Source: an uncultured bacterium
GTDB lineage: Bacteria; Fidelibacterota; UBA2242
DNA length: 64,000 bases
Direction: 5' to 3'
NCBI GenBank assembly: GCA_964576275.1
Contig: CAZNUN010000004.1
Coordinates: forward strand, 28,736 to 92,735
The notes below the pieces were generated by a model. That model was not told the origin of the DNA. It saw nothing but the letters and a program-made list of their open reading frames with translations, and made no database searches. Both the position numbers and the translations under genes were made by a program. Numbering within the stretch: position 1 is the first letter of the stretch; each line of letters starts with the position of its first letter. This document shows positions 20,082-47,039 of this stretch, in pieces.

Positions 20082-21449
20082 ATGAATAACGAAGAATTAA
20101 GATTATTAATCCAACAGGGAGAATCGGAAACGATTGAGTTTAAGGAAAACTTCGGGAATGAAGCTATTGAATCTGCCGGAGCTTTCGCCAATACCCGCGG
20201 TGGACTAATTCTGATCGGAGTTAACAGACATGGTCATATAAATTGTGTTCAGGCGACTCAGGAAACGTTAAAAGATTGGGCTAATCAGGTTGGACAATGT
20301 AGTGAACCCACATTTACGCCATTATTTGAAATTGTTCCGACTGACAACGGTAATGTTGTCGCTATTCACATCAGTGAATATCCGCTCAAACCGGTTTCGA
20401 TTCGCGGCAGATTCTATCGACGGGTCAATGCCAGCAACCATCAGATGATACCAGATGAAATCGCACAGATGCACCTTTATTCAATCGGTTCCAGCTATGA
20501 TGCCATCTCAAGTCCGAACGCAACTCTCGATGATATATCAGAAGATAAAATCAGAGATTATTTGCAGAAGGCTAACGCTACCGGACGCCGGAATTATGAT
20601 ATCAGTCGACCACCTCTTCAAATACTTGAAAAAGTTGAATTGATCAAATCGGGCAAGCCGACTATTGCTGCAGTTCTATTATTTGCAAAAGAACCTCATA
20701 ATAAAATTCACCAGGCTATCGTACATTGCGGGCGATTTAAGGAACTCACTACTATTATCGATGACCGATTGATAGAAGGTACAATTATTGAGCAGATTGA
20801 CGAAGTTATGGCTTTCCTGCGGAAGAACACCAGCGTTCGTTTTGTATTTACCGGAAAACCCGAACGTGAAGAAGTCTGGGATTATCCATTGGAAGCTCTG
20901 CGGGAAGCCGTAACGAATGCCATCTGCCACCGCGACTATGGCAATACCAGCGATATTCAAATTAAAGTTCACGACGATTATCTGACAATTTGGAATCCGG
21001 GCGGACTATTACCGGGGATGTCAATCGAGGAATTGTATGATCCTAATCATTCTTCCAAACCCCGCAATCGGCTAATCGCCCAGGTTTTTAATGACATTAA
21101 ATTGATCGAAAAATACGGTTCCGGCATCCAGCGTATCTTAACCGAATGTGCAAAAGTCGGCATTCCGGCCCCATCGTTTGAAGAGAAGTTCGGTGGCTTT
21201 CTGGTAACCTTCCGAAAGGATATTTACACTGAAGACCATCTTAAAGCCATGGGATTGAACGAACGACAGATAAAGGCCGTAGTATTTACAAAAAAGAATG
21301 GTAAAATAACAAATAAACAATATCAGGAAATAACCGGCATCCAGAAACGACAAGCCACTGTTGACCTTCAGGATATGGAAAATAAAGGAATACTCACAAA
21401 GGTCGGAAAAACCGGTAGAGGAACCTTTTACACCCTAAAGGGGCATTAA
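20082..21449 (+). CDS. COG2865-type ATP-binding protein: Schlafen/AlbA_2 DNA-binding domain, HATPase_c_4-like domain and C-terminal wHTH
   Basis: AlbA_2 hallmark (ESETIEFKENFGNEAIESAGAFANTRGGLILIGV) at the N-terminus. C-terminal HTH (…ITNKQYQEITGIQKRQATVDLQDMENKGILTKVG). Confidence 0.7.
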   Translation: MNNEELRLLIQQGESETIEFKENFGNEAIESAGAFANTRGGLILIGVNRHGHINCVQATQETLKDWANQVGQCSEPTFTPLFEIVPTDNGNVVAIHISEYPLKPVSIRGRFYRRVNASNHQMIPDEIAQMHLYSIGSSYDAISSPNATLDDISEDKIRDYLQKANATGRRNYDISRPPLQILEKVELIKSGKPTIAAVLLFAKEPHNKIHQAIVHCGRFKELTTIIDDRLIEGTIIEQIDEVMAFLRKNTSVRFVFTGKPEREEVWDYPLEALREAVTNAICHRDYGNTSDIQIKVHDDYLTIWNPGGLLPGMSIEELYDPNHSSKPRNRLIAQVFNDIKLIEKYGSGIQRILTECAKVGIPAPSFEEKFGGFLVTFRKDIYTEDHLKAMGLNERQIKAVVFTKKNGKITNKQYQEITGIQKRQATVDLQDMENKGILTKVGKTGRGTFYTLKGH

Positions 21450-23607: not shown

Positions 23608-24786
23608 TCAGTAGCCTTTATCGTCGCGGATTTTTTTACAATGGGCGCAGATCGGCAGGAGGCCGCTGAGCGTCTTGACCTGGTTGAGGGCTTCCCGAAG
23701 CTCGCGGATTAGTTTTTCGCGTTCCGCTTCGGCTTTTTTCTTCTCCGTGATGTCGCGAAGAACGATACTTTTGCCAATGGTCTGGGATAATTGATCGCGT
23801 AGTACCGAGAGGCGCAGTTCGAATTGCCGATCCGGTTGAACCTCACCCAGATCAATTTCGACCTGGGCATAATCTTGTGATTTTAGAAAATCGTCCAGAT
23901 TTTTTACCAGCGGAAAGAATCGGGTGATATTCTGCCCGATCATCTGTTTCGGGGTAAGCTGGAAAGTAGCCGCCGAAGCCGGGTTGATATCAACGATCAG
24001 GTCGTCGGTATCTAAGACAATCAGACTGTCAACCATATTTTCAACTAAGAAAGTGTGGGCGATCGGAGCCAGTTTGAGCAGTTTCAGGCGCAGGATACCC
24101 CAGGTAAGTACGATTCCCGATAGAACAAATCCCACCGGCGCCCAGTCTAATCCCGGAATCGGATTCGGGCCGAAAACATAGATCAGATTGCCGGAAATCG
24201 GGATAAGGGCTCCGATGATTATAGACAGGTTATGCGGGGCGTAAAACGAACCGGATTTGAAGGCCGACTTAAGCAGGAAAAACAGCGCCGGCAGAATTAG
24301 GGTGTATTGATAAGTGTAGTAGAACCACCAGACGATGCCATGTCCGTAAACCGCAATGTTCGTTCCGGGAGTGATTGTGACTGTCGGCCAGAGCCAGTAA
24401 TGCCACGGATTGGTAAAGGCCAGCAAGGTCATGCTGATCGGTACAAACAGGAGCGGCCAGATGATTTTACGTGGGAAGGATTTCTGCCCGCGATTGTAAT
24501 CGATGGAGAACAGGAAAAATGCCGGTGGAACCAAACCGGTTCCGATGTAGGCAACCGCCGACCAGAATTGTTTGAGCGGAATTGTGGTAGCGGCGACTTC
24601 GAACATCAATCCGAAAGCCCATTCGGCGGCGGCCAGTTCCAGAATAATCATCCAGAAAGCGGCCTTGAATTTGCGATGCGGCCACAGCACAATCGCAATG
24701 ATGATGCCGATCAGCATCGTGGCGATTAAAATGTAACTATAGAAACCGAAAATATAAGTCTGCATGTCTCTTATAAAATACGTCAT
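23608..24786 (-). CDS. 7TM (HisKA_7TM-like) – PAS – coiled-coil sensor protein lacking a kinase domain; the Cys-rich C-terminal domain is interrupted by an in-frame TGA, and the open frame continues to 23470
   Basis: Seven N-terminal TM helices and a PAS-like segment (VDINPASAATFQLTPKQMIGQNI). The protein ends …ICAHCKKIRDDKGY-TGA. In the same frame it continues NDVESYIQSHSDADFSHGICPDCLDKYYPEIAARMKARREKEGHS*. Confidence 0.6.
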   Translation of the reverse strand: MTYFIRDMQTYIFGFYSYILIATMLIGIIIAIVLWPHRKFKAAFWMIILELAAAEWAFGLMFEVAATTIPLKQFWSAVAYIGTGLVPPAFFLFSIDYNRGQKSFPRKIIWPLLFVPISMTLLAFTNPWHYWLWPTVTITPGTNIAVYGHGIVWWFYYTYQYTLILPALFFLLKSAFKSGSFYAPHNLSIIIGALIPISGNLIYVFGPNPIPGLDWAPVGFVLSGIVLTWGILRLKLLKLAPIAHTFLVENMVDSLIVLDTDDLIVDINPASAATFQLTPKQMIGQNITRFFPLVKNLDDFLKSQDYAQVEIDLGEVQPDRQFELRLSVLRDQLSQTIGKSIVLRDITEKKKAEAEREKLIRELREALNQVKTLSGLLPICAHCKKIRDDKGY

Positions 24787-25046: not shown

Positions 25047-26237
25047 TTGAAAAAGCTATCCCTATCAAAGTTTGCAACCCGTGGGTTAATAGCGGGGTTG
25101 ATACTGGTATTACTAACCGGAAATGCCTTCAGCGCCATTACGCTGTCGACCGATCCGATCAAAGTTCAACTATACGGTTTTGTCAAATTGGATGCGTTTT
25201 ACGATAATACCGAGGTTTACCAGGGCGACTGGATGTTGTTCGCCCGTCCGGAAGGCACGATCCAATCCGAAACCAATGTATTTTCAATGAATGCCCGCGC
25301 CAGCCGCATGGGGCTGAAGTTCACCGGCCCGGCCCTGACGCCGAAAATCGGTCTCAATGCTTTGCTGGAAATGGATTTCAGCGGCGGTTTCCCGAATTCA
25401 TCCTCGGCCGCCCGCCAGCCGCAACTGCGTCTGCGGCATGCCTGGGTGGAATTAAACCACGCGGTCTGGGAATTGCGTCTCGGTCAGGATTGGGGCTTGA
25501 TTACCGGGCCTTTCCCAAATACGACTGACGCGGTGGTCGGCGCCGCCAAAGGTAACCTCTGGATGGCGTACAGCCAGGCTAAACTAACCCTGAAGCATGA
25601 TCCTTTAAAACTCGCCGTTAGCGTCAATCGTCCGATGTCCGGTAATGTCAAGTACGACAGTTTTACAGGCGGTGACCTCGATATTGTCGACGATGGCGAA
25701 CGCAGCGGCCAGCCGTGGCTGATGGGGCGCGTCTGGTACAGCTCTAAAATGTTAACGGCGTCGGTTTCCGGCCATTACGGCCAGGAAAGCATCGCCGATT
25801 TATCAGCGAAAACGCACGAGGTCACGACGTATTCGGCCAACGCGGATGTAATTCTGAATCTTGGCAAATTATCGCTGACCGGCCGGGTCTTCAGCGGCGA
25901 AAACCTGAATACCTTTTTCGGCGGTATAGTTCAGGGTTATGTGACCGACTCAACTTCCGTGACAAATATCGCGGCGCAGGGCGGCTGGGCGCAGGCAGTC
26001 TTCCAGGTAGATCCGAAATGGGCGCTGACCGCCGGCGCCGGATTGGACGACCCGGACGACACTCACCTGGCCTCGGGTGCCCGCTCGCGCAATTTCTGGA
26101 AGTACGGCTGTCTGACCTGGAAACCGGCCGGCGAACTGGCGTTTATGTTCGAGGTCAACCACCTGACGACCGATTACATCGCCAAGGACAGCGGCTCGAA
26201 CCTGCGCGTGCAATTCACGACGACCTATACGTTTTAA
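25047..26237 (+). CDS. outer-membrane porin-like beta-barrel protein
   Basis: Signal peptide (…LTGNAFSA). Alternating amphipathic strands and a terminal aromatic (…QFTTTYTF). Confidence 0.45.
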   Translation: MKKLSLSKFATRGLIAGLILVLLTGNAFSAITLSTDPIKVQLYGFVKLDAFYDNTEVYQGDWMLFARPEGTIQSETNVFSMNARASRMGLKFTGPALTPKIGLNALLEMDFSGGFPNSSSAARQPQLRLRHAWVELNHAVWELRLGQDWGLITGPFPNTTDAVVGAAKGNLWMAYSQAKLTLKHDPLKLAVSVNRPMSGNVKYDSFTGGDLDIVDDGERSGQPWLMGRVWYSSKMLTASVSGHYGQESIADLSAKTHEVTTYSANADVILNLGKLSLTGRVFSGENLNTFFGGIVQGYVTDSTSVTNIAAQGGWAQAVFQVDPKWALTAGAGLDDPDDTHLASGARSRNFWKYGCLTWKPAGELAFMFEVNHLTTDYIAKDSGSNLRVQFTTTYTF

Positions 26238-26359
26238 CGTTTCTCGTAAAACGTAAGATGTAAATCGTGATGAGATTATTCTGACTTCCTGTCGGTTCAA
26301 AAAACATTTGCATAATCTTGCTACTGTGCTTAAAATTCGCGCTGTAATTGAGAATTGAA

Positions 26360-26425
26360 ATGAAAATTAGTCTGCATCATATCCATCATGTTCATCATTC
26401 CAAAACAGGAACCGGGATGAAGTAG
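26360..26425 (+). CDS. hisL: his operon leader peptide (MKISLHHIHHVHHSKTGTGMK)
   Basis: 21 codons with 6 His codons within 8 positions (26375-26398), immediately upstream of the terminator hairpin and hisG. Confidence 0.7.
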   Translation: MKISLHHIHHVHHSKTGTGMK

Positions 26426-26450
26426 ACGATTTATTTAAGATGTAAATCAA

Positions 26451-26486
26451 CCCGGTTCAGGTAAAACGAACCGGGTTTTTTATTTT
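26451..26486 (+). terminator. intrinsic terminator / attenuator of the his operon
   Basis: Stem cccggttc (26451-58) pairs with gaaccggg (26468-75) around a 9-nt loop, followed by TTTTTTATTTT. An identical gaaccggg 8-mer inside the leader (26409-16) can pair with the 5' arm as an antiterminator. Confidence 0.7.
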
Positions 26487-26498
26487 ACAGGAGCACAA

Positions 26499-27353
26499 AT
26501 GATTACGTTAGCAATTCAAAAATCGGGGCGGCTGAGCGAATATACAACTAAACTTTTAAACGAATGCGGCCTGCTGGTCGGGAATGGCGGCGAACGCCGC
26601 CTGAAGGCCGAATCCACAAATTTTCCGATGAGAATTCTTTTTCTGCGCGATGACGATATTCCGGAATGTGTCGCCGATGGCATCGCGGACCTCGGGATTG
26701 TCGGCGAGAATGTCTATTACGAGAAAGCCCGTCCGCTGAAAATCGTCGAGCGGCTTGGTTTTGCCAAATGCCGCCTGGCGATCGCCGTGTCGAAAGATTT
26801 CGTTTGCGAAAATTTATCCGATCTGAACGGTCTGAGCATTGCGACTTCCTATCCGCATATCCTACAGCGCTTCTTAGATGAAAACCAGTTGACGGCCGAA
26901 ATTCACGAAATCAGCGGTTCGGTAGAGATTGCCCCGGGAATCGGTCTGGCGCAGGCGATTTTTGATATTGTCAGCACCGGCAGCACACTGTTAGCCAACG
27001 GTCTGAAAGAGGTTGTGACGGTTTTGAAAAGCGAAGCCGTGCTGGTGGCTGGAGAAAGCCTGAGTGCCGCAAAATCCGCCTTGCTGGAGCAATTATTGTT
27101 GCGCATCCGGGCGGTGCAGGCCGCCAAAAACCGTAAATACATTCTGTTGAATGCCCCCAACTCCGCCATCGATAAGATCAGCGCCATTTTGCCGGGCATG
27201 AAAAGTCCGACCGTCATGCCGCTGGCCGAACCAGGCTGGAGTTCTTTGCATTCCGTGATCGAAGAGGATCAGTTCTGGGAGCGGATTTCCGCCCTGAAAA
27301 CCGCCGGCGCGCAGGGCATTTTGGTCATCCCGATTGAAAAAATGATCCTATAG
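26499..27353 (+). CDS. hisG: ATP phosphoribosyltransferase (long form with C-terminal regulatory domain)
   Basis: MITLAIQKSGRLSE… is a typical HisG start; 284 aa. Confidence 0.95.
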   Translation: MITLAIQKSGRLSEYTTKLLNECGLLVGNGGERRLKAESTNFPMRILFLRDDDIPECVADGIADLGIVGENVYYEKARPLKIVERLGFAKCRLAIAVSKDFVCENLSDLNGLSIATSYPHILQRFLDENQLTAEIHEISGSVEIAPGIGLAQAIFDIVSTGSTLLANGLKEVVTVLKSEAVLVAGESLSAAKSALLEQLLLRIRAVQAAKNRKYILLNAPNSAIDKISAILPGMKSPTVMPLAEPGWSSLHSVIEEDQFWERISALKTAGAQGILVIPIEKMIL

Positions 27354-27361
27354 GTGATAGT

Positions 27362-28663
27362 ATGCAGATCGTTAAATATCCTCCGCGTAATCAATGGCCT
27401 GAACTCGTCAAGCGGCCGGCAATCGAAAGCAAATTTCTGCAGAACGCCGTGCGCGAAATCCTGGACGCGGTCAAGGCCGACGGCGATGCCGCGTTGAGGC
27501 AATTTTCCCGTAAATATGACGGCGTGCGTTTGGTCGAAATAGAAGTGCAACGCGCGGAATTTGAAACCATCCTGACACAAGTGGACGACGATCTCCGATT
27601 GGCGATTGAGACCGCTCGTGAAAATATCACCAAGTTTCATGCGGCACAGGTCGAGAATGATCGAAAGATCGAAACCAGTCCGGGTGTGGTTTGCTGGCGG
27701 AAAAGCGTCCCAATCGAACGTGTCGGCTTGTATATTCCCGGCGGGTCTGCTCCGCTGTTTTCAACGGTTCTGATGTTGGCGATTCCGGCGCGTCTCGCCG
27801 GTTGCCGTGAAATCGTCTTATGCACGCCGCCAAACCGCGACGGATACATTCATCCGGTAATTCTTTATACCGCCCAAATGCTGGGCATCGAACGCATTTT
27901 TAAAATCGGCGGCGCTCAGGCTATCGCGGCGATGGCATACGGGACGCAAAGCGTTCCGCAGGTCGATAAAATTTTTGGTCCCGGCAATCAATATGTCACG
28001 CTCGCTAAGCAGATCGTCAGCACCCAGGGTGTGGCGATTGATATGCCCGCCGGACCTTCGGAGGTAGCCGTTGTGACTGATGGCTTTGCCAATCCGGATT
28101 TCGTGGCGGCCGATCTGCTGTCACAGGCCGAACACGGCGCCGACAGCCAGGTGGTTTGTCTGACGGATGACGCCGAATTGGTTACGAAAATCAGGCAGGC
28201 GGTCACAGAGCAGCTGGAATTGTTGCCGCGTCGTGCCATTGCTGAAAAATCACTGGCCTTCAGCCGCGTGATTTTGCTTAAAGATTTGGATGAAGCCATG
28301 GATTTTGCAAATAAATATGCTCCCGAACATCTGATCCTGCAAACCCAGAACGCCGCGCAACTGGCGGAAAAAGTCGTCAACGCCGGTTCGGTTTTTATCG
28401 GAGCTTATTCACCGGAATCGGCCGGCGATTATGCTTCCGGAGCCAATCATACTTTGCCGACCAATGGCTACGCCCGCAGTTACAGCGGGGTTTCGGTTGA
28501 CAGTTTCGTTAGGAAAATCACCTTTCAGTCGATTTCTGCCGACGGTCTGCGCGGCCTCGGCCCGACCATCGAACGCATGGCAGCCGAAGAAAAATTACAG
28601 GCGCATCGCAATGCCGTGCGGGTGCGCTTGAATGCCATTGCGAAAGGAGCCGAACGTGGTTGA
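27362..28663 (+). CDS. hisD: histidinol dehydrogenase
   Basis: 433 aa; HisD-typical regions (…IPGGSAPLFSTVLM…, …SQAEHGADSQ…). Confidence 0.95.
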   Translation: MQIVKYPPRNQWPELVKRPAIESKFLQNAVREILDAVKADGDAALRQFSRKYDGVRLVEIEVQRAEFETILTQVDDDLRLAIETARENITKFHAAQVENDRKIETSPGVVCWRKSVPIERVGLYIPGGSAPLFSTVLMLAIPARLAGCREIVLCTPPNRDGYIHPVILYTAQMLGIERIFKIGGAQAIAAMAYGTQSVPQVDKIFGPGNQYVTLAKQIVSTQGVAIDMPAGPSEVAVVTDGFANPDFVAADLLSQAEHGADSQVVCLTDDAELVTKIRQAVTEQLELLPRRAIAEKSLAFSRVILLKDLDEAMDFANKYAPEHLILQTQNAAQLAEKVVNAGSVFIGAYSPESAGDYASGANHTLPTNGYARSYSGVSVDSFVRKITFQSISADGLRGLGPTIERMAAEEKLQAHRNAVRVRLNAIAKGAERG

Positions 28664-29699
28664 CCTGAATCGGCTGGTGCGGCGCAACGTCGCCGGACTG
28701 AAACCATATTCAACCGCCCGGGATGAATACAGCGGTTCGATCGGTGTCTTTCTGGATGCCAATGAAAATTCGCTGGGCAGTGCCACGGAAAGAAATTTCA
28801 ACCGCTATCCCGATCCGCATCAGCGCGAGCTGAAAGAGCGTCTCGCGGAAATCAAGAATGTATCAGCGGAGCGCATATTGCTGGGTAATGGCAGCGACGA
28901 GGTCATCGACCTTGCGATCCGGGCTTTTTGCGATCCGCGCCTCGACCGGATGATGATTGTTCCGCCGACTTACGGTATGTACGCCGTCAGTGCCGCTACG
29001 AATGATGTCGAAGTCATCGCCGTTCCGCTGACACCCGATTATCAATTGGATCTCCCGGCGATTCTGGCTCAGGCCGGGCGGGTCAAAATGATTTTTCTAT
29101 GTTCGCCGAATAATCCGAGCGGCAATTGTTTGAAGGCTGAAGCCGTTTGGGAACTATTGAATAAATTCAACGGGATTGTGGTCGTCGATGAGGCCTATGC
29201 CGATTTTACGCCCGGGAAAAGCCTGGTGCCCGAATTGGCGAACTATAACAACTTAATCATCATACAGACTTTTTCGAAAGCCTGGGGACTCGCGAATCTG
29301 CGCCTCGGGATGGCATTTGCCGACCCGCAAATCATCGCATGGCTGTCGCGCATTAAATATCCGTACAATGTCAACGGTCTGACGCAGAAAATGGCTTTGA
29401 CCGCCCTGCAGCGCGTCGCTGTAAAAGACCGGATGGTCGCTACCCTGCTGGCCGAGCGCGAGCGGTTGGTTAAATTACTGCCGGACTTAGCTGTGGTTGA
29501 AAAAGTATTTCCGTCCGACGCTAACTTTTTATTGGTTAAATTTCACGACGCGCGCCGGGTGTTCGATTATCTAATCTCGCAGAAAATTATCGTGCGGGAC
29601 CGTTCGCAGATGGTGCATTGTGAAAATTGCCTGCGTATTACGGTCGGCACCCGCGCTGAAAATGATATTTTAATTGCCAAACTGAAGGAATTAGAATAG
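28656..29699 (+). CDS. hisC: histidinol-phosphate aminotransferase
   Basis: GTG start at 28656 with RBS aaaggag 7 nt upstream, overlapping the hisD stop. Class II aminotransferase with PLP-lysine region ([13 protein letters not shown]). Confidence 0.9.
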
Positions 29700-30790
29700 T
29701 GAAGAAAGTTTTATTTATCGACCGCGACGGAACGCTGATAATCGAGCCGACCGACGAGCAAATCGATTCGCTGGAAAAATTAGAATTCGTGCCGGGCGCT
29801 ATCACGGCCATGTCCCGCATCGCGAAGCAACTTGATTTCGAGTTGGTCATGGTGAGCAACCAGGATGGTCTGGGAACCGATGCGTTTCCGGAAAAAGATT
29901 TCTGGCCGGCGCACAATAAAATGCTGCAAACGCTGGCGGGCGAGGGCGTGGTTTTCGCTGAAATTTTAATTGATCGCAGTTTTCCGGCGGACAATGCTCC
30001 GACGCGTAAACCGCGCACCGGTCTGCTTACCAAATATCTGGATGGCGACTACGATCTGGCTAATTCATTTGTGATTGGCGATCGGGCGACCGATGTGGAA
30101 CTGGCCCGCAATCTGGGCGCCAAATCGATTTACCTCGGAAAAGACGAAAAGGTTTCCGCCGATTTCAAAACGCAGAACTGGGCGGAAGTATTAGATTACC
30201 TTTTTAATGCTAACCGCACCGCCACGATTGCCCGTAAGACCAACGAGACCGACATTAATTTGAAAATTAACCTGAACGGCGCGGGACGGAACCAAATTGA
30301 TAGCGGCATCGGTTTTCTGGACCACATGCTGAACCTGTTCGCGGCCCATTCCGGTTGCGATCTCGAACTGACCGCCAAAGGCGATCTGGCGGTCGACGAA
30401 CATCACACCGTGGAAGACATTGCCCTGGTTTTGGGTGAAGGTCTGCTGAAAGCGCTGGGCGACAAGAAAGGCATTGAGCGTTACGGATTTCTGTTGCCGA
30501 TGGATGAATCGCTGGCGCAGGTGGCCTTGGATTTTTCCGGCCGGCGCGAATTTGTCTGGGAATGTGAATTCAAACGTGAATACGTCGGACAGATGCCCAC
30601 CGAATTAGTGCGGCATTTTTTCAAATCGTTTTCCGATGCGGCCGCCTGCAACCTGCATATTAAAGCCACGGGCGGGAACGAGCATCACAAAATCGAAGCG
30701 ATTTTCAAGGCGGTCGGACGGGCGGTCAAAATGGCCGTGCGCCGCGATCCCGATCGCCGGCAAATCCCAAGCACAAAAGGAGTGCTGTGA
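29699..30790 (+). CDS. hisB: bifunctional histidinol-phosphatase / imidazoleglycerol-phosphate dehydratase
   Basis: N-terminal HAD phosphatase (FIDRDGTL). C-terminal IGPD ([17 protein letters not shown]…HHTVED…HHKIEA). Confidence 0.95.
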
Positions 30791-31368
30791 AAGTGGTAAT
30801 GGTCGAATATAACGCCGGAAACGTTCATTCCGTGCGTCTGGCGCTGCAGCGGTTGGGGATCGAGCCGGTGGTCAGCAGCGATCCGGCCGTGATCAAATCG
30901 GCCGACAAAGTAATTTTTCCGGGAGTCGGTGAAGCCTCCTCGGCAATGCAATACATCCGCGCCAGTGGAGTTGCCGAACTGCTGCCGACTTTACGCCAGC
31001 CGATTCTGGGAATTTGCCTCGGATTACAACTTATGTGTCGTCATTCCGAAGAGAATAACACCGACTGTCTCGGCATCTTCGATGTCGCGGTCAAGAAATT
31101 TCCGCCTTTGGATAAAGTGCCGCACATGGGTTGGAACACGCTCGGCCAACTGCGTGGCGAACTTTTCCGCGCCGTATCGGAAAACGCCTATGTTTATTTC
31201 GTACACAGTTACTACGCCGAGATGAGTGAATTCACCATCGCGCAAACCGGTTACATCGTGCCGTTTTCGTCAGCTTTGCAGAAAGATAACTTTTTCGCGG
31301 TGCAATTTCACCCGGAAAAGAGCGGTTTAGTAGGCGAACAAATTTTGAGGAATTTTCTGCAATTATGA
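30787..31368 (+). CDS. hisH: imidazole glycerol phosphate synthase, glutamine amidotransferase subunit
   Basis: Class I GATase catalytic Cys ([10 protein letters not shown]). Typical HisH start ([12 protein letters not shown]). Confidence 0.95.
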
Positions 31369-32087
31369 TTACGATAATTCCGGCAATCGATATTATTGGC
31401 GGCAAATGCGTACGCTTAAGCCGCGGCGATTTTGCGACGCAGAAAATTTATAATGAGAATCCGCTGGAAGTCGCCCGGCAATTCGCCGATGCGGGCATTA
31501 CGCGCCTGCACTTAGTCGATCTGGATGGCGCCCGCCATAAACATGTAGTCAACTGGAAAGTGCTGGAAAGCATCGCGGCCGGAACACCCTTGCAGATCGA
31601 TTTCGGAGGCGGTATTCGAAGCGATGAAGATGTCCGCATTGCCTTCGAAAGCGGTGCGCGCCAGATTACGGCGGGCAGTATTGCGGTCAACCAGCCCGAT
31701 AAAGTCTGCGACTGGCTGAAAAAGTTTGGTGGCGAGAAAATTATCCTCGGCGCCGATGTCAAAGACCGACAAATCGCGATTTACGGCTGGCAGGAAAAAG
31801 CAGCGCTGGATGTGCTGGATTTCCTGCGTGATTATCAGCAAAAGGGCGCCCGGCAAACGATCTGCACGGACGTGGCCTGCGACGGAATGCTGACCGGCCC
31901 GGCCTTTGAATTGTATCGCGAAATTAAACGCGAATTCACTGATCTTTACCTGATTGCCAGCGGTGGCGTCGGGCGTTTTGATGATGTCCTGCGTTTGCAG
32001 GAAGACGGCATCGATGGCGTAATAATTGGCAAGGCGCTTTACGAGGGCCGCATCAGCCTGGCGGAACTGAAAGGTTTTTTATGTTAG
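31365..32087 (+). CDS. hisA: ProFAR isomerase (1-(5-phosphoribosyl)-5-[(5-phosphoribosylamino)methylideneamino]imidazole-4-carboxamide isomerase)
   Basis: [15 protein letters not shown]…GGGIRS… HisA motifs. Confidence 0.95.
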
Positions 32088-32836
32088 CCAAACGCATAAT
32101 TCCCTGTCTCGATATCAAAGACGGACAGACTGTCAAAGGGGTCAATTTTGTCAATATCCGGCACGCCGGCGATCCGGTCGAACTTGGGGCGGCTTATGCC
32201 GGGCAGGGCGCTGATGAACTGGTGTTTCTCGACATAACGGCTTCCGTTGAAAAACGCGGGACGTTCGTCGAATTGGTACGCGACATCGCGAAACATCTGA
32301 ACATTCCGTTCACCGTCGGTGGCGGAGTGCGCGATGCCGATGACGTGGCGCGACTGCTGAACGCCGGCGCCGATAAAATTTCGGTCAACACCGCGGCGGT
32401 CAACAACCCGGGATTGATCGAAAGACTGGCCAACCGCTTCGGCAGTCAATGCGTGGTGGTGGCGATCGACACGCGCCACACGCCGCAGGGCGATGTGGTT
32501 TATATTCATGGCGGACGCACGCCGACCGATAAAATTACCCAGGATTGGGCGCGGCAGGTCGTCGAACTGGGAGCCGGTGAAATTCTGCTGACTTCCATGG
32601 ATCACGACGGTACGAAAAACGGTTTTGCGCTGGATATAACGCGGGAATTATCGGAAAGCTTACCAATTCCCGTGATTGCCTCGGGCGGTGCCGGAACACT
32701 GTCGCACTTCACGGATGTTTTCCGGGAAGGCAAAGCCGATGCGGCCCTGGCTGCCAGTATTTTTCATTTCGGCGAAATCCCGATCCCGACCCTGAAACAT
32801 TATCTTAAAACGAATGGAATAGAGGTGCGCTTATGA
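32081..32836 (+). CDS. hisF: imidazole glycerol phosphate synthase, cyclase subunit
   Basis: [11 protein letters not shown]…VGGGV… HisF motifs. Confidence 0.95.
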
Positions 32837-33429
32837 ATATAGATTTCGATAAAAATGACGGGCTGGTTCCGGCTATTATCCAGGATGAAACGACCGGAAA
32901 GGTGCTGATGCTCGGTTACCTGAACCGCGAGTCTTACGAGAAAACCCTGGCAACCGGCCGGGTGACGTTTTTCAGCCGCAGCCGCCAGACGCTCTGGACA
33001 AAAGGCGAAACATCCGGGAATTTCCTGGATGTCAAAGATATTTTGATAGATTGCGACGGTGATACGCTATTGATCAAAGTCCGGCCGACCGGCCCGACCT
33101 GTCATACCGGAGCGGACACCTGCTTCAATGAGGAAAATGTGGTTGCTCAATCATTTATTTATGAACTGGAAAAAGTCATCACAGATCGCAAAATTCATCC
33201 GCAGGCCGGCTCATACACCAATACATTGTTCGAGGCTGGAATCAAACGTATCGCCCAGAAAGTTGGAGAGGAAGCCACGGAAGTCGTCATCGACGCTGTC
33301 TCGGACAATGTGCCGTGTATGCAGGAAGAGGTCGCCGATTTGCTTTATCACTTGCTGGTGCTGTTAGCCGCGAAAAACATCGCATTCGACGACATCATGC
33401 AAGTGCTGGAAAAACGGCATAAAAAGTGA
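32833..33429 (+). CDS. hisIE: bifunctional phosphoribosyl-AMP cyclohydrolase / phosphoribosyl-ATP pyrophosphatase
   Basis: N-terminal HisI ([22 protein letters not shown]…CHTG). C-terminal HisE ([13 protein letters not shown]). Confidence 0.95.
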
Positions 33430-38727: not shown

Positions 38728-38786
38728 CTTTCTTATAAAGAAAAATGCTGTTGGAAAAACGCACTTTTAGGTTAGTTGGGATTTTG

Positions 38787-38859
38787 TGAGTGCAGCAGGG
38801 ATCGAACCTGCGACCCACGGCTTAAAAGGCCGTTGCTCTACCTACTGAGCTATGCACCC
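38787..38859 (-). tRNA. tRNA-Lys (anticodon UUU)
   Basis: The reverse complement gives GGGTGCATAGCTCAGTAGGTAGAGCAACGGCCTTTTAAGCCGTGGGTCGCAGGTTCGATCCCTGCTGCACTCA. The 7-bp acceptor stem, D-arm, anticodon stem ACGGC/GCCGT with loop CTTTTAA, and T-arm GCAGG-TTCGATC-CCTGC are all present. Confidence 0.9.
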
Positions 38860-45552: not shown

Positions 45553-45582
45553 TTCATGACAAACAATGACAACTAATGACTT
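45543..45582. repeat. right inverted ATGAC repeat array (4 units) flanking the four-helix-bundle gene
   Basis: aatgacaattcatgacaaacaatgacaactaatgac is the reverse complement orientation of the left array. Confidence 0.75.
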
Positions 45583-47039
45583 TTCTCCACAAGTTCATTG
45601 AATTGGATGATCAGTTCGTCGATTTTGTCGGCGAGACCATGTACCCGACCCCAGTACTTTTCGGCGTCGTACCACTGGGCATTGATTTCTTCGACGGTTT
45701 TACCTTGCTGTTCGATCCAGGTGAAATATTTCAGGTTGTGAATGCGCCGGCGGTCGTAGTAATTGAGTTCTTGCATAGTGTCGGTGCGCAGACCGATGAG
45801 ATGCTGATAAAAATCGCGTTCGGCGCGGGAGAGAGTGTAAGCACCATTGGCTTCTTCGTATTCTTTCAGGCGCGAGTTGTACATTTCCATAGAATCTGTA
45901 AAAACGGTCAGGATAATGTCTTTGGAAGTCAGCTCGTAATATTTGGCGAATTTGATGGCGCTGAGCAAGTTGGCAATGCTGGAAATTCCAAGCAGATCCA
46001 GTTGCCCGACCAGACTTTCGGGGACGCCGGCTTTGACCAGGTAATCGCGTCCGGTTGGGGTATTGAAGAGCGGGAGGAGATTCATCGGGTCGTTATCGTC
46101 AATGGCAATGACCATGTCGGTGTTGCGGACATTGTGAATCCAAGGCACATGCTTGTCGCCGATGCCTTCGATGCGGTGACCGCCGTAGCCGTTCAACATC
46201 AGCGTCGGGCATTGGAGAGCCTCGCTGGCGGCGATTTTAATAGCTGGGAAGCGTTCTTTGAGAAAGTCGCCGCTGGCCAGGGTGCCGGCTGAACCGGTGG
46301 TGAAAACGGCACCGGCAAAACGTTCTTGCGGGCGGCGGATTTGCTCCAGAATCTCCTTAAAGGCGTGACCGGTCACTTCGTAATGCCAAAGATAATTTCC
46401 GAATTCGTCAAATTGATTGAAAATGACAATGTCCTGCCGGGTTCGGCGCAATTCGTGACATTTATCGTAGATTTCCTTGACATTGCTCTCACAGCCGGGC
46501 GTGGCGATGATCTCGCCGGCGACGGTTTTCAACCACTCGAAACGTTCGCGGCTCATGCCTTCCGGCAGAATAGCGATCGACTCGCAGCTCAGCAAAGCCG
46601 CGTCGTACGCTCCGCCGCGGCAATAGTTGCCGGTCGAAGGCCAAACCGCTTTCTGATAGGTCGGATCGAACTGGCCGGTCACCAAACGCGGAACGAGACA
46701 GCCGAAAGTGGCGCCGACTTTATGCGCGCCGGTCGGGAACCATTTGCCGACTAAGGCGATGATCCGCGCCGGCACGCCGGTCAGGGCTGGTGGCATTTCC
46801 ATAAAGTTCACGCCGTTGAAACCTCCGCCGCTTTTCACCGGTTCATTTTTCCAGGTGACGCGGAAAAGATTGAGCGGATTGACTTCCCAGAGGCCGACTT
46901 TTTTCAGGTCGGCTTTGATATTGGCTGGAATTTTGGTTGGATCTTTGTGCTCAGCAAAAGTCGGGATGGTTATGTTACGTTCACGGCAACGCTGAGCGGT
47001 GCGTTTTAACTGCTTTTCATTAACGGTCAGATCAATCAT
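45573..47039 (-). CDS. PLP-dependent enzyme, fold type II (TrpB/CysK/threonine dehydratase superfamily) with N- and C-terminal extensions
   Basis: Lys-containing motif PTGAHKVGATFG. Glycine-rich PLP-phosphate loop (STGNYCRGGAYDAALL). 488 aa. Confidence 0.55.
   Translation of the reverse strand: MIDLTVNEKQLKRTAQRCRERNITIPTFAEHKDPTKIPANIKADLKKVGLWEVNPLNLFRVTWKNEPVKSGGGFNGVNFMEMPPALTGVPARIIALVGKWFPTGAHKVGATFGCLVPRLVTGQFDPTYQKAVWPSTGNYCRGGAYDAALLSCESIAILPEGMSRERFEWLKTVAGEIIATPGCESNVKEIYDKCHELRRTRQDIVIFNQFDEFGNYLWHYEVTGHAFKEILEQIRRPQERFAGAVFTTGSAGTLASGDFLKERFPAIKIAASEALQCPTLMLNGYGGHRIEGIGDKHVPWIHNVRNTDMVIAIDDNDPMNLLPLFNTPTGRDYLVKAGVPESLVGQLDLLGISSIANLLSAIKFAKYYELTSKDIILTVFTDSMEMYNSRLKEYEEANGAYTLSRAERDFYQHLIGLRTDTMQELNYYDRRRIHNLKYFTWIEQQGKTVEEINAQWYDAEKYWGRVHGLADKIDELIIQFNELVEKSH

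Follow-up and report, generated by a model that had tools for sequence, protein, structure and literature searches.

The window analysed here is a stretch of 64,000 nucleotides (nt) from contig CAZNUN010000004.1 of an uncultured bacterium. Its plus strand carries the histidine biosynthesis operon hisG-hisD-hisC-hisNB-hisH-hisA-hisF-hisIE, all eight genes of which gave NCBIfam equivalog matches. The host phylum is Fidelibacterota in the NCBI taxonomy, which is part of the FCB group and distinct from Bacteroidota, and the closest HisG proteins and loci (83-93% identity) come from metagenome-assembled genomes (MAGs) of Candidatus Marinimicrobia/Neomarinimicrobiota. The region in front of hisG holds a short His-rich open reading frame (ORF) and an intrinsic terminator, one arm of which has an additional partner inside the ORF. 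This leader element, a candidate transcription attenuator, is the subject of the present analysis; its ORF, hairpins, competing pairings, energies and conservation were computed. The features are, from 5′ to 3′:

26307 to 26336, plus strand: predicted sigma-70-like promoter from a consensus scan, TTTGCA (26307-12), 18-nt spacer, TAAAAT (26331-36)
26348 to 26353, plus strand: TTGAGA, possible weak Shine-Dalgarno-like element of the leader ORF, 7-12 nt upstream of the ATG
26360 to 26425, plus strand: leader ORF, 21 codons and stop, MKISLHHIHHVHHSKTGTGMK
26370 to 26384, plus strand: segment 1 (tentative), paired with 26414-26427 in the unconstrained minimum-energy fold, −13.9 kcal/mol
26375 to 26398, plus strand: sensor block, six CAU His codons as three pairs (HH-I-HH-V-HH), proposed ribosome stall sites
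26409 to 26416, plus strand: segment 2, antiterminator 5′ arm GAACCGGG, in the codons for Gly-Thr-Gly, 14 to 7 nt before the stop
26428 to 26448, plus strand: small AU-rich hairpin between segments 2 and 3, 7 base pairs (bp), −2.9 kcal/mol, formed in the terminator state
26449 to 26458, plus strand: segment 3, terminator 5′ arm AACCCGGTTC, common to antiterminator and terminator
26468 to 26477, plus strand: segment 4, terminator 3′ arm GAACCGGGTT
26476 to 26486, plus strand: U-tract TTTTTTATTTT of the intrinsic terminator
26491 to 26495, plus strand: Shine-Dalgarno sequence AGGAG of hisG
26499 to 33429, plus strand: operon hisG to hisIE

The leader ORF starts with the ATG at 26360 and stops with the TAG at 26423-26425. 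Six of eight consecutive positions of its peptide are His, and every His codon is CAU. This codon choice (6/6) is uninformative, since the 18 large ORFs of the window contain 107 CAU versus 88 CAC. When both strands of the window were searched for ATG ORFs of at most 45 amino acids (aa) with at least four His in eight residues, one ORF was found besides the leader. It encodes 37 aa (46099-46212, minus strand) and lies within a large minus-strand ORF (45573-47039).

Transcription would be expected to start near 26343, about 17 nt upstream of the leader ORF, if the predicted promoter is used. Inspection by eye of Marinimicrobia relatives revealed TTGACA-N17-19-TA(n)T(T)T in front of their leaders at the corresponding position, and most members of the clade have TTGAGA(A/T) 6-12 nt upstream of the leader ATG. 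No predicted structure sequesters the AGGAG of hisG.

Terminator and Antiterminator Pairings

The core of the terminator consists of CCCGGTTC (26451-58), a 9-nt loop and GAACCGGG (26468-75). Two further A-U pairs extend the stem to 10 bp (26449-58 with 26468-77), and an energy of −16.1 kcal/mol was calculated for the hairpin. The 8-mer CCCGGTTC follows the leader stop after 25 nt, and the U-tract, a run that is invariant in the clade alignment described below, has its last nucleotide at 26486, which leaves 12 nt to the hisG ATG at 26499. A simple terminator scanner missed the hairpin at 26449-77 because of its loop limit of 8 nt. Folding of the 146-nt region gave z = −4.75 in comparison to dinucleotide shuffles.

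The 8-mer GAACCGGG occurs three times in the window when both strands are counted, and all three occurrences fall within 67 nt at this locus. The copy inside the leader ORF (26409-16) can pair with 26451-58, the same nucleotides that form the 5′ arm of the terminator. A preliminary description of this DNA had reported the ORF with six His codons in eight positions, the terminator with its arms, loop, U-tract and spacings, and the third copy of the 8-mer. All of these were recovered, with a stem that is longer than the 8-mer arms.

To form an antiterminator, the leader copy has to compete with segment 4. In a transcript cut before segment 4 (at 26467), the minimum-energy fold was the helix 26409-16:26451-58 with three more pairs. 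The energies of the individual elements are −16.1 kcal/mol for the terminator, −15.3 to −16.7 kcal/mol for the antiterminator region and −13.9 kcal/mol for the pairing of segments 1 and 2 (1:2). Tentatively, the 1:2 pairing might act as a pause hairpin or as an anti-antiterminator. Without a ribosome, the terminator state (−36.4 kcal/mol) was ahead of the antiterminator state (−20.0 kcal/mol) by 16 kcal/mol. With the ORF masked up to 26408, which mimics a stalled ribosome, the values were −21.1 kcal/mol for the terminator state and −18.1 kcal/mol for the antiterminator state. The two states of the stalled complex are thus predicted to be nearly iso-energetic, and the antiterminator would form first. 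In these calculations the antiterminator is thermodynamically competitive only with a ribosome on the His codons, as the attenuation model requires. The equilibrium fold of the full-length masked transcript was always the terminator, so that the case for the antiterminator is a kinetic one combined with near-equal energies and not one of thermodynamic dominance.

By established footprint dimensions, a ribosome extends about 12 nt beyond the first A-site nucleotide in the 3′ direction. With any of the His codons in the A site, the ribosome would reach at most to about 26408 and leave 26409-16 free; once the stop codon occupies the A site, its footprint would cover 26409-16.

His-Rich Short ORFs Upstream of hisG in Related Genomes

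Loci for comparison were taken from scans with a HisG alignment of species-representative genomes and of metagenome contigs, which together yielded 160 loci. These are the best-matching loci out of more than 590 candidate hisG loci in each collection, and they stem from Marinimicrobia, Calditrichota, KSB1, Ignavibacteria-type genomes and many Bacteroidota. We scored short ORFs with an ATG start, a length of at most 45 aa and at least three His in eight residues, located within 250 nt upstream of hisG. Such an ORF was present at 128 of 146 hisG loci (88%). For genome contigs the count was 68/78 (reverse complement 0/78), for metagenome contigs 60/68 (reverse complement 1/68), and dinucleotide shuffles contained such an ORF in 1.8% of cases. 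At the stricter threshold of at least four His, 61 of the 78 genome loci still had a short ORF versus 0.06% in shuffles. The leader peptides share little besides the His run, as illustrated by MTLNTHHLNHHISRRGTGMR, MHHYHHHKHTPR, MNFTTAYHGHHHHR and MNFNQLHHHHFHTGSNARRK.

A terminator-like hairpin with a T-tail followed all 69 leaders that were analysed in this respect. It started 4-45 nt past the stop codon (16-45 nt in 68 of the 69), and its end was located 17-96 nt from hisG. The preliminary description had named a comparison with relatives as a check, and both the His-codon run and the hairpin are common at homologous loci.

The part of the leader downstream of the His codons was compared to the 5′ arm of the terminator, and their complementarity exceeded that of shuffles with p ≤ 0.05 in 56% of the loci and with p ≤ 0.01 in 35%. 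The complementary arms are lineage-specific: GGAACCGGG:CCCGGUUC in the window, UUCCGGG:CCCGGAA in L036, UUCCCACGG:CCGUGGGAA in L067, CUGGCAAGUCU:AGGCUUGCCA in L070 and CAGGCGAGGU:ACCCGUCUG in L049. Among the significant loci, the arm had a median position of 15 nt past the last His codon and spanned positions −14 to −7, counted from the stop; in 31 of these 36 loci a terminating ribosome would cover it with its footprint.

Two of the loci have an unusual arrangement. In L036 (Neomarinimicrobiota MAG Zod_Metabat.977) the region 2199-2470, in front of hisG at 2501, contains two tandem units of His leader and terminator. The first comprises the ORF MRKKSMKRNLTHWHHHHSNYRLM and the terminator AAGCCGGTTTCAATTAAGAATCCGGCTTTTTT, the second the ORF MKNNTNNHHIHHHGHWISG with its own terminator, and each unit has a separate complementary antiterminator arm. 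This tandem arrangement is analogous to that of tandem riboswitches or T-boxes. In L014, a Marinimicrobia-like contig with hisG at 2234, leader and terminator (1946-2092) were detected by the covariance model described below. They lie about 140 nt farther upstream than usual, with extra sequence between them and hisG.

Conservation and Covariation of the Pairings

For the Marinimicrobia clade, 25 leader sequences were aligned. The antiterminator was paired in 97.5% of the cells of this alignment and the terminator in 98%. Every member of the clade retains the CCCGG core of segment 3 unchanged, as would be expected if one segment has to pair with two different partners. In L007 (peptide ending in ...EELG) the reading frame differs and the nucleotides GGAACYGGGATG are nevertheless retained, which argues that it is the RNA, not the peptide, that is constrained. 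Together with the truncated fold and the energies given above, these data support the view that the leader copy of the 8-mer forms an exclusive antiterminator with 26451-58, as had been suggested.

The terminator stem was further evaluated in 41 family members from four phyla. It was paired in 98%, and compensatory double changes were seen in 7 of 10 pairs, a level that none of 500 shuffles attained. This covariation is somewhat inflated by the fitting of this alignment to the terminator structure.

A covariance model built from the 25 clade leaders (R1) gave plus-strand matches (E ≤ 1) upstream of hisG in most of 80 genome loci, including Calditrichota, Bacteroidota and others. The scores ranged from roughly 19 to 59 bits, with E values down to about 1e-10, and derive in part from generic features (CAU repeats, terminator). 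Most matches were full-length, some covered only the terminator, and a few were located farther upstream (L014, L036). Bacteroidota loci scored 37-57 bits, e.g., 57 for L075, 50 for L061 and 49 for L055. In the whole window R1 had a single plus-strand match, the hisG leader element.

Predicted Mechanism and Alternative Explanations

The locus has a short ORF rich in the cognate codon that is conserved in relatives (128/146 hisG loci), an intrinsic terminator between this ORF and the first structural gene, and a mutually exclusive antiterminator in a position that allows control by the ribosome. We consider it very probable that the element is a ribosome-mediated (leader-peptide) transcription attenuator through which the level of charged tRNA-His governs the hisGDC[NB]HAF[IE] operon. 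For the model outlined here we infer the ribosome footprints, the coupling of transcription and translation, the promoter and the response to histidine. An ample supply of His-tRNA would allow the ribosome to proceed to the stop codon at 26423, where its footprint would lie over the antiterminator arm at 26409-16. In a transcript without a ribosome, the His-codon region would partly sequester the arm by forming a hairpin with it. With the arm either covered or sequestered, segment 3 (26449-58) would pair with segment 4 (26468-77), and this hairpin together with the U-tract would end transcription ahead of hisG. Under a shortage of His-tRNA, the ribosome would stall at one of the six CAU codons (26375-98), with its leading edge short of 26409. 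The freed arm could then pair with segment 3 upon its transcription, the terminator would come too late, and RNA polymerase would enter hisG. The energetics and the comparative evidence both support this control of hisG by ribosome stalling, which had already been proposed from the sequence.

Several observations weigh against this interpretation. The terminator state keeps an advantage of about 3 kcal/mol when a ribosome is stalled on the ORF, and the 8-mer arms are identical, so that fast strand exchange could in principle restore termination. Changes in the antiterminator and terminator within the clade are one-sided only (C-to-U or A-to-G wobble), with no double compensatory change; support for the pairings therefore comes from wobble-only variation and from the comparison between lineages. 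The register of the 1:2 hairpin of the window was 57% paired in the clade alignment, no better than in shuffles, and the simple complementarity test was not significant in about 44% of the loci. The Shine-Dalgarno-like element of the leader ORF is weak (GAGA). Finally, coupling and translation of the leader are assumed for this phylum, and the case as a whole is computational.

The hairpin might instead serve as terminator or insulator of the upstream gene, with the His-rich ORF and the repeated 8-mer present by chance. This gene, a 396-aa ORF (25047-26237, plus strand), shares the strand of the his leader and immediately precedes it, no strong terminator belonging to the gene itself was seen, and the three copies of the 8-mer in the window equal the chance expectation of 2.9. 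However, the hairpin is found 212 nt beyond the upstream stop codon with a promoter-like site in between, and the three copies are all clustered within 67 nt. Moreover, short ORF and terminator precede hisG in 128/146 loci of several phyla, whichever gene lies upstream, as opposed to about 2% in shuffles. These conservation data effectively refute this alternative, to which we assign a negligible probability, and the reverse-complement and shuffle controls speak against a search artefact. Another alternative is control by a trans factor (a metabolite riboswitch, an RNA-binding protein or a T-box-like interaction with tRNA) instead of a translating ribosome. In other lineages his genes are indeed under T-boxes or the HisR repressor (PMC9413887). 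Nevertheless, no T-box or riboswitch model matched the locus at E ≤ 10, nor did any reach its gathering threshold in the window or in the 20 related loci scanned. Besides the terminator, the only feature common to all lineages is the in-frame run of His codons in an ATG ORF, which trans mechanisms do not need; we regard such control as extremely improbable.

It is also very unlikely that the ORF encodes a functional His-rich micro-protein (e.g., for metal binding) or that the leader RNA acts in trans, with only a secondary link to hisG. Trans-acting leader peptides and attenuator RNAs do exist, for example peTrpL and rnTrpL in Sinorhizobium, and a C-terminal GTGM(R/K) motif is conserved in the clade. 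Outside the His run, however, the peptides are unrelated between lineages, and the position of the conserved C-terminal motif is that of the antiterminator arm, whose nucleotides are kept in another frame as well. The short ORF is always found immediately 5′ of hisG, and a function in trans would add to attenuation in cis and not replace it. A simpler two-state attenuator, in which the ribosome merely occludes the arm, no 1:2 pairing takes part and untranslated transcripts read through, is a more serious competitor, although we still consider it unlikely. In its favour, the 1:2 register is poorly conserved, as mentioned above, sequestration of the arm by upstream sequence is weakly above shuffles in a per-sequence test (4.6 vs 3.4 nt, mean z = −1.1), and the truncated ribosome-free transcript already folds into the antiterminator. 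Nevertheless, the 1:2 hairpin of the window is stable (−13.9 kcal/mol) and would be transcribed and folded before segment 3 exists, and most clade members have some hairpin joining the His-codon region to the GGGAUGA...stop region.

Relation to Known Attenuators

The proposed attenuator shares with hisL of E. coli and Salmonella the short ORF with a His run upstream of hisG, the intrinsic terminator, pairings selected by ribosome position and the same operon organisation, but it has no detectable similarity in sequence or structure to hisL. A permissive scan (E ≤ 10) of 26200-26560 gave no match to the gamma-proteobacterial Rfam family His_leader (RF00514, gathering score 49 bits), while the same model scored 131.6 bits on E. 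coli hisL as a positive control; R1 in turn scored 10 bits on E. coli. Scans at Rfam gathering thresholds detected no leader family in the window or in 20 related loci. The hisG leader is a functional analogue of E. coli hisL and not a member of RF00514. The best match of any Rfam family within 26200-26560 was the trpB motif (RF04312, 25.9 bits versus a gathering score of 59), which was rejected as an identity since it is below threshold and explained by the terminator alone.

The two elements also differ in their layout. In the peptide of the window, six His form three interrupted pairs and seven further codons come after them, whereas in E. coli hisL an unbroken run of seven His is located two codons ahead of the stop. 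The hisL element is divided into six segments (A-F) and is about 150 nt long. In contrast, the element of the window has four segments with the antiterminator arm in the ORF, and measures about 118 nt from the ATG to the terminator. In this respect it is closer to E. coli trpL, which has four segments with the regulatory codons in segment 1 and a 3:4 terminator. In trpL the stop codon is near segment 2, and the terminating ribosome blocks the 2:3 pairing. The differences from trpL are the other amino acid, the lack of a sequence relation, the poorly supported 1:2 pairing in the window and the position of segment 2 wholly inside the ORF. The term enterobacterial-style used in the preliminary description thus fits the logic of the element, but neither its family nor its layout, which is of the four-segment and not of the six-segment hisL type.

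Leader peptides with the same logic (cognate-codon ORF, antiterminator, terminator) are known from other lineages, with different operons or amino acids. Vitreschak et al. are said to have predicted attenuators in Bacteroidetes/Chlorobi in 2004, and the tryptophan leader of Bacteroidetes is presumably the Rfam family Bacteroid-trp (RF01692). This tryptophan leader is cited in PMC9723704, and His-leader attenuators have been predicted in Firmicutes, namely in the B. cereus group, Peptostreptococcaceae and Erysipelotrichales (PMC9413887, PMC2965389). Since these leaders occur in independent lineages, the mechanism is widespread outside Proteobacteria.

The most closely comparable case within the FCB group is that of Flavobacterium psychrophilum, for which Guerin et al. 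2021 annotated a hisG leader peptide attenuation element (PMC9723704). Their mapping revealed a 129-nt 5′ transcript; read-through was reported under particular conditions, and expression peaked in minimal-nutrient media (PMC9723704). These transcript data lend indirect support to the predicted rise in read-through when charged tRNA-His is limiting. As in the window, a His-rich short ORF (MSLNQLHHHHFHICSQAKC) is followed by a terminator and the hisG operon. The 129-nt sequence aligned to 26 of the Bacteroidota loci with 69-79% identity, and several of these loci are detected by R1. A BLAST comparison between the F. psychrophilum element and the window revealed no direct similarity. The two elements belong to different phyla and have different terminator and antiterminator sequences (ACCCGTYTGAG.../CAGGCGA... 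in F. psychrophilum), and transcript evidence exists for F. psychrophilum.

The preliminary description had also stressed that the genome looks non-proteobacterial and that his attenuation would not be the norm there. The first part is correct, with the qualification that the genome belongs to Marinimicrobia within the FCB group and not to Bacteroidota. The premise of rarity does not hold in view of the leaders at 128/146 hisG loci and of the annotation in F. psychrophilum. Judged by the leader sequences, his attenuation appears to be the norm rather than the exception in the retrieved FCB hisG loci. The element is new for the phylum and uncatalogued in Rfam 15, but mechanistically it represents no new principle.

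Possible Origin and Implications of the Leaders

The his operon of the window has the same gene order and the same hisNB and hisIE fusions as that of E. coli (L162), and identity to the E. coli proteins amounts to 44% for HisG and 47% for HisNB. It was proposed that the compact his operon spread from gamma-proteobacteria by horizontal transfer (PMC8305728). One could thus imagine that the leaders of Marinimicrobia, Calditrichota, Bacteroidota and Ignavibacteria-type genomes form a single ancient family that moved with the "enterobacterial" operon as one unit and was later remodelled beyond sequence recognition. We found no sequence evidence for a co-transfer of attenuator and operon between Proteobacteria and the FCB group, and consider this scenario improbable. 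A weaker version, by which the leaders are one vertically inherited FCB-wide family distinct from RF00514, is somewhat favoured.

Marinimicrobia (SAR406) are abundant ocean bacteria, known here from MAGs only. The searchable literature contained nothing that describes gene regulation in Marinimicrobia at this level, and searches for Marinimicrobia in combination with attenuation or leader peptides found nothing relevant, nor did we find anything on Calditrichota. The element is a concrete, testable cis-regulatory switch, and it would imply that Marinimicrobia couple transcription to translation and tune histidine synthesis to the charging of tRNA-His. In MAGs such short ORFs are missed or called hypothetical proteins; the alignment and R1 could seed an Rfam family and improve the annotation of MAGs.

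Genomic Neighbourhood

The product of the gene upstream of the leader (25047-26237) had been labelled PorV, which was not borne out: no Pfam or NCBIfam model matched it at E ≤ 0.001. Its C-terminus reads ...QFTTTYTF, and we assume that the terminal Phe resembles the signature of outer-membrane beta-barrels. Farther upstream, 23608-24786 (minus strand) encodes a 7TM-HisKA/PAS protein, apparently with no kinase domain in the ORF and with no evident link to his, and 20082-21449 (plus strand) encodes a Schlafen AlbA_2/HATPase_c_4 protein, likewise a neighbour of the his locus with no evident link. The only RNA gene that Rfam or ARAGORN detected in the window is a tRNA-Lys (UUU) at 38786-38859 on the minus strand.

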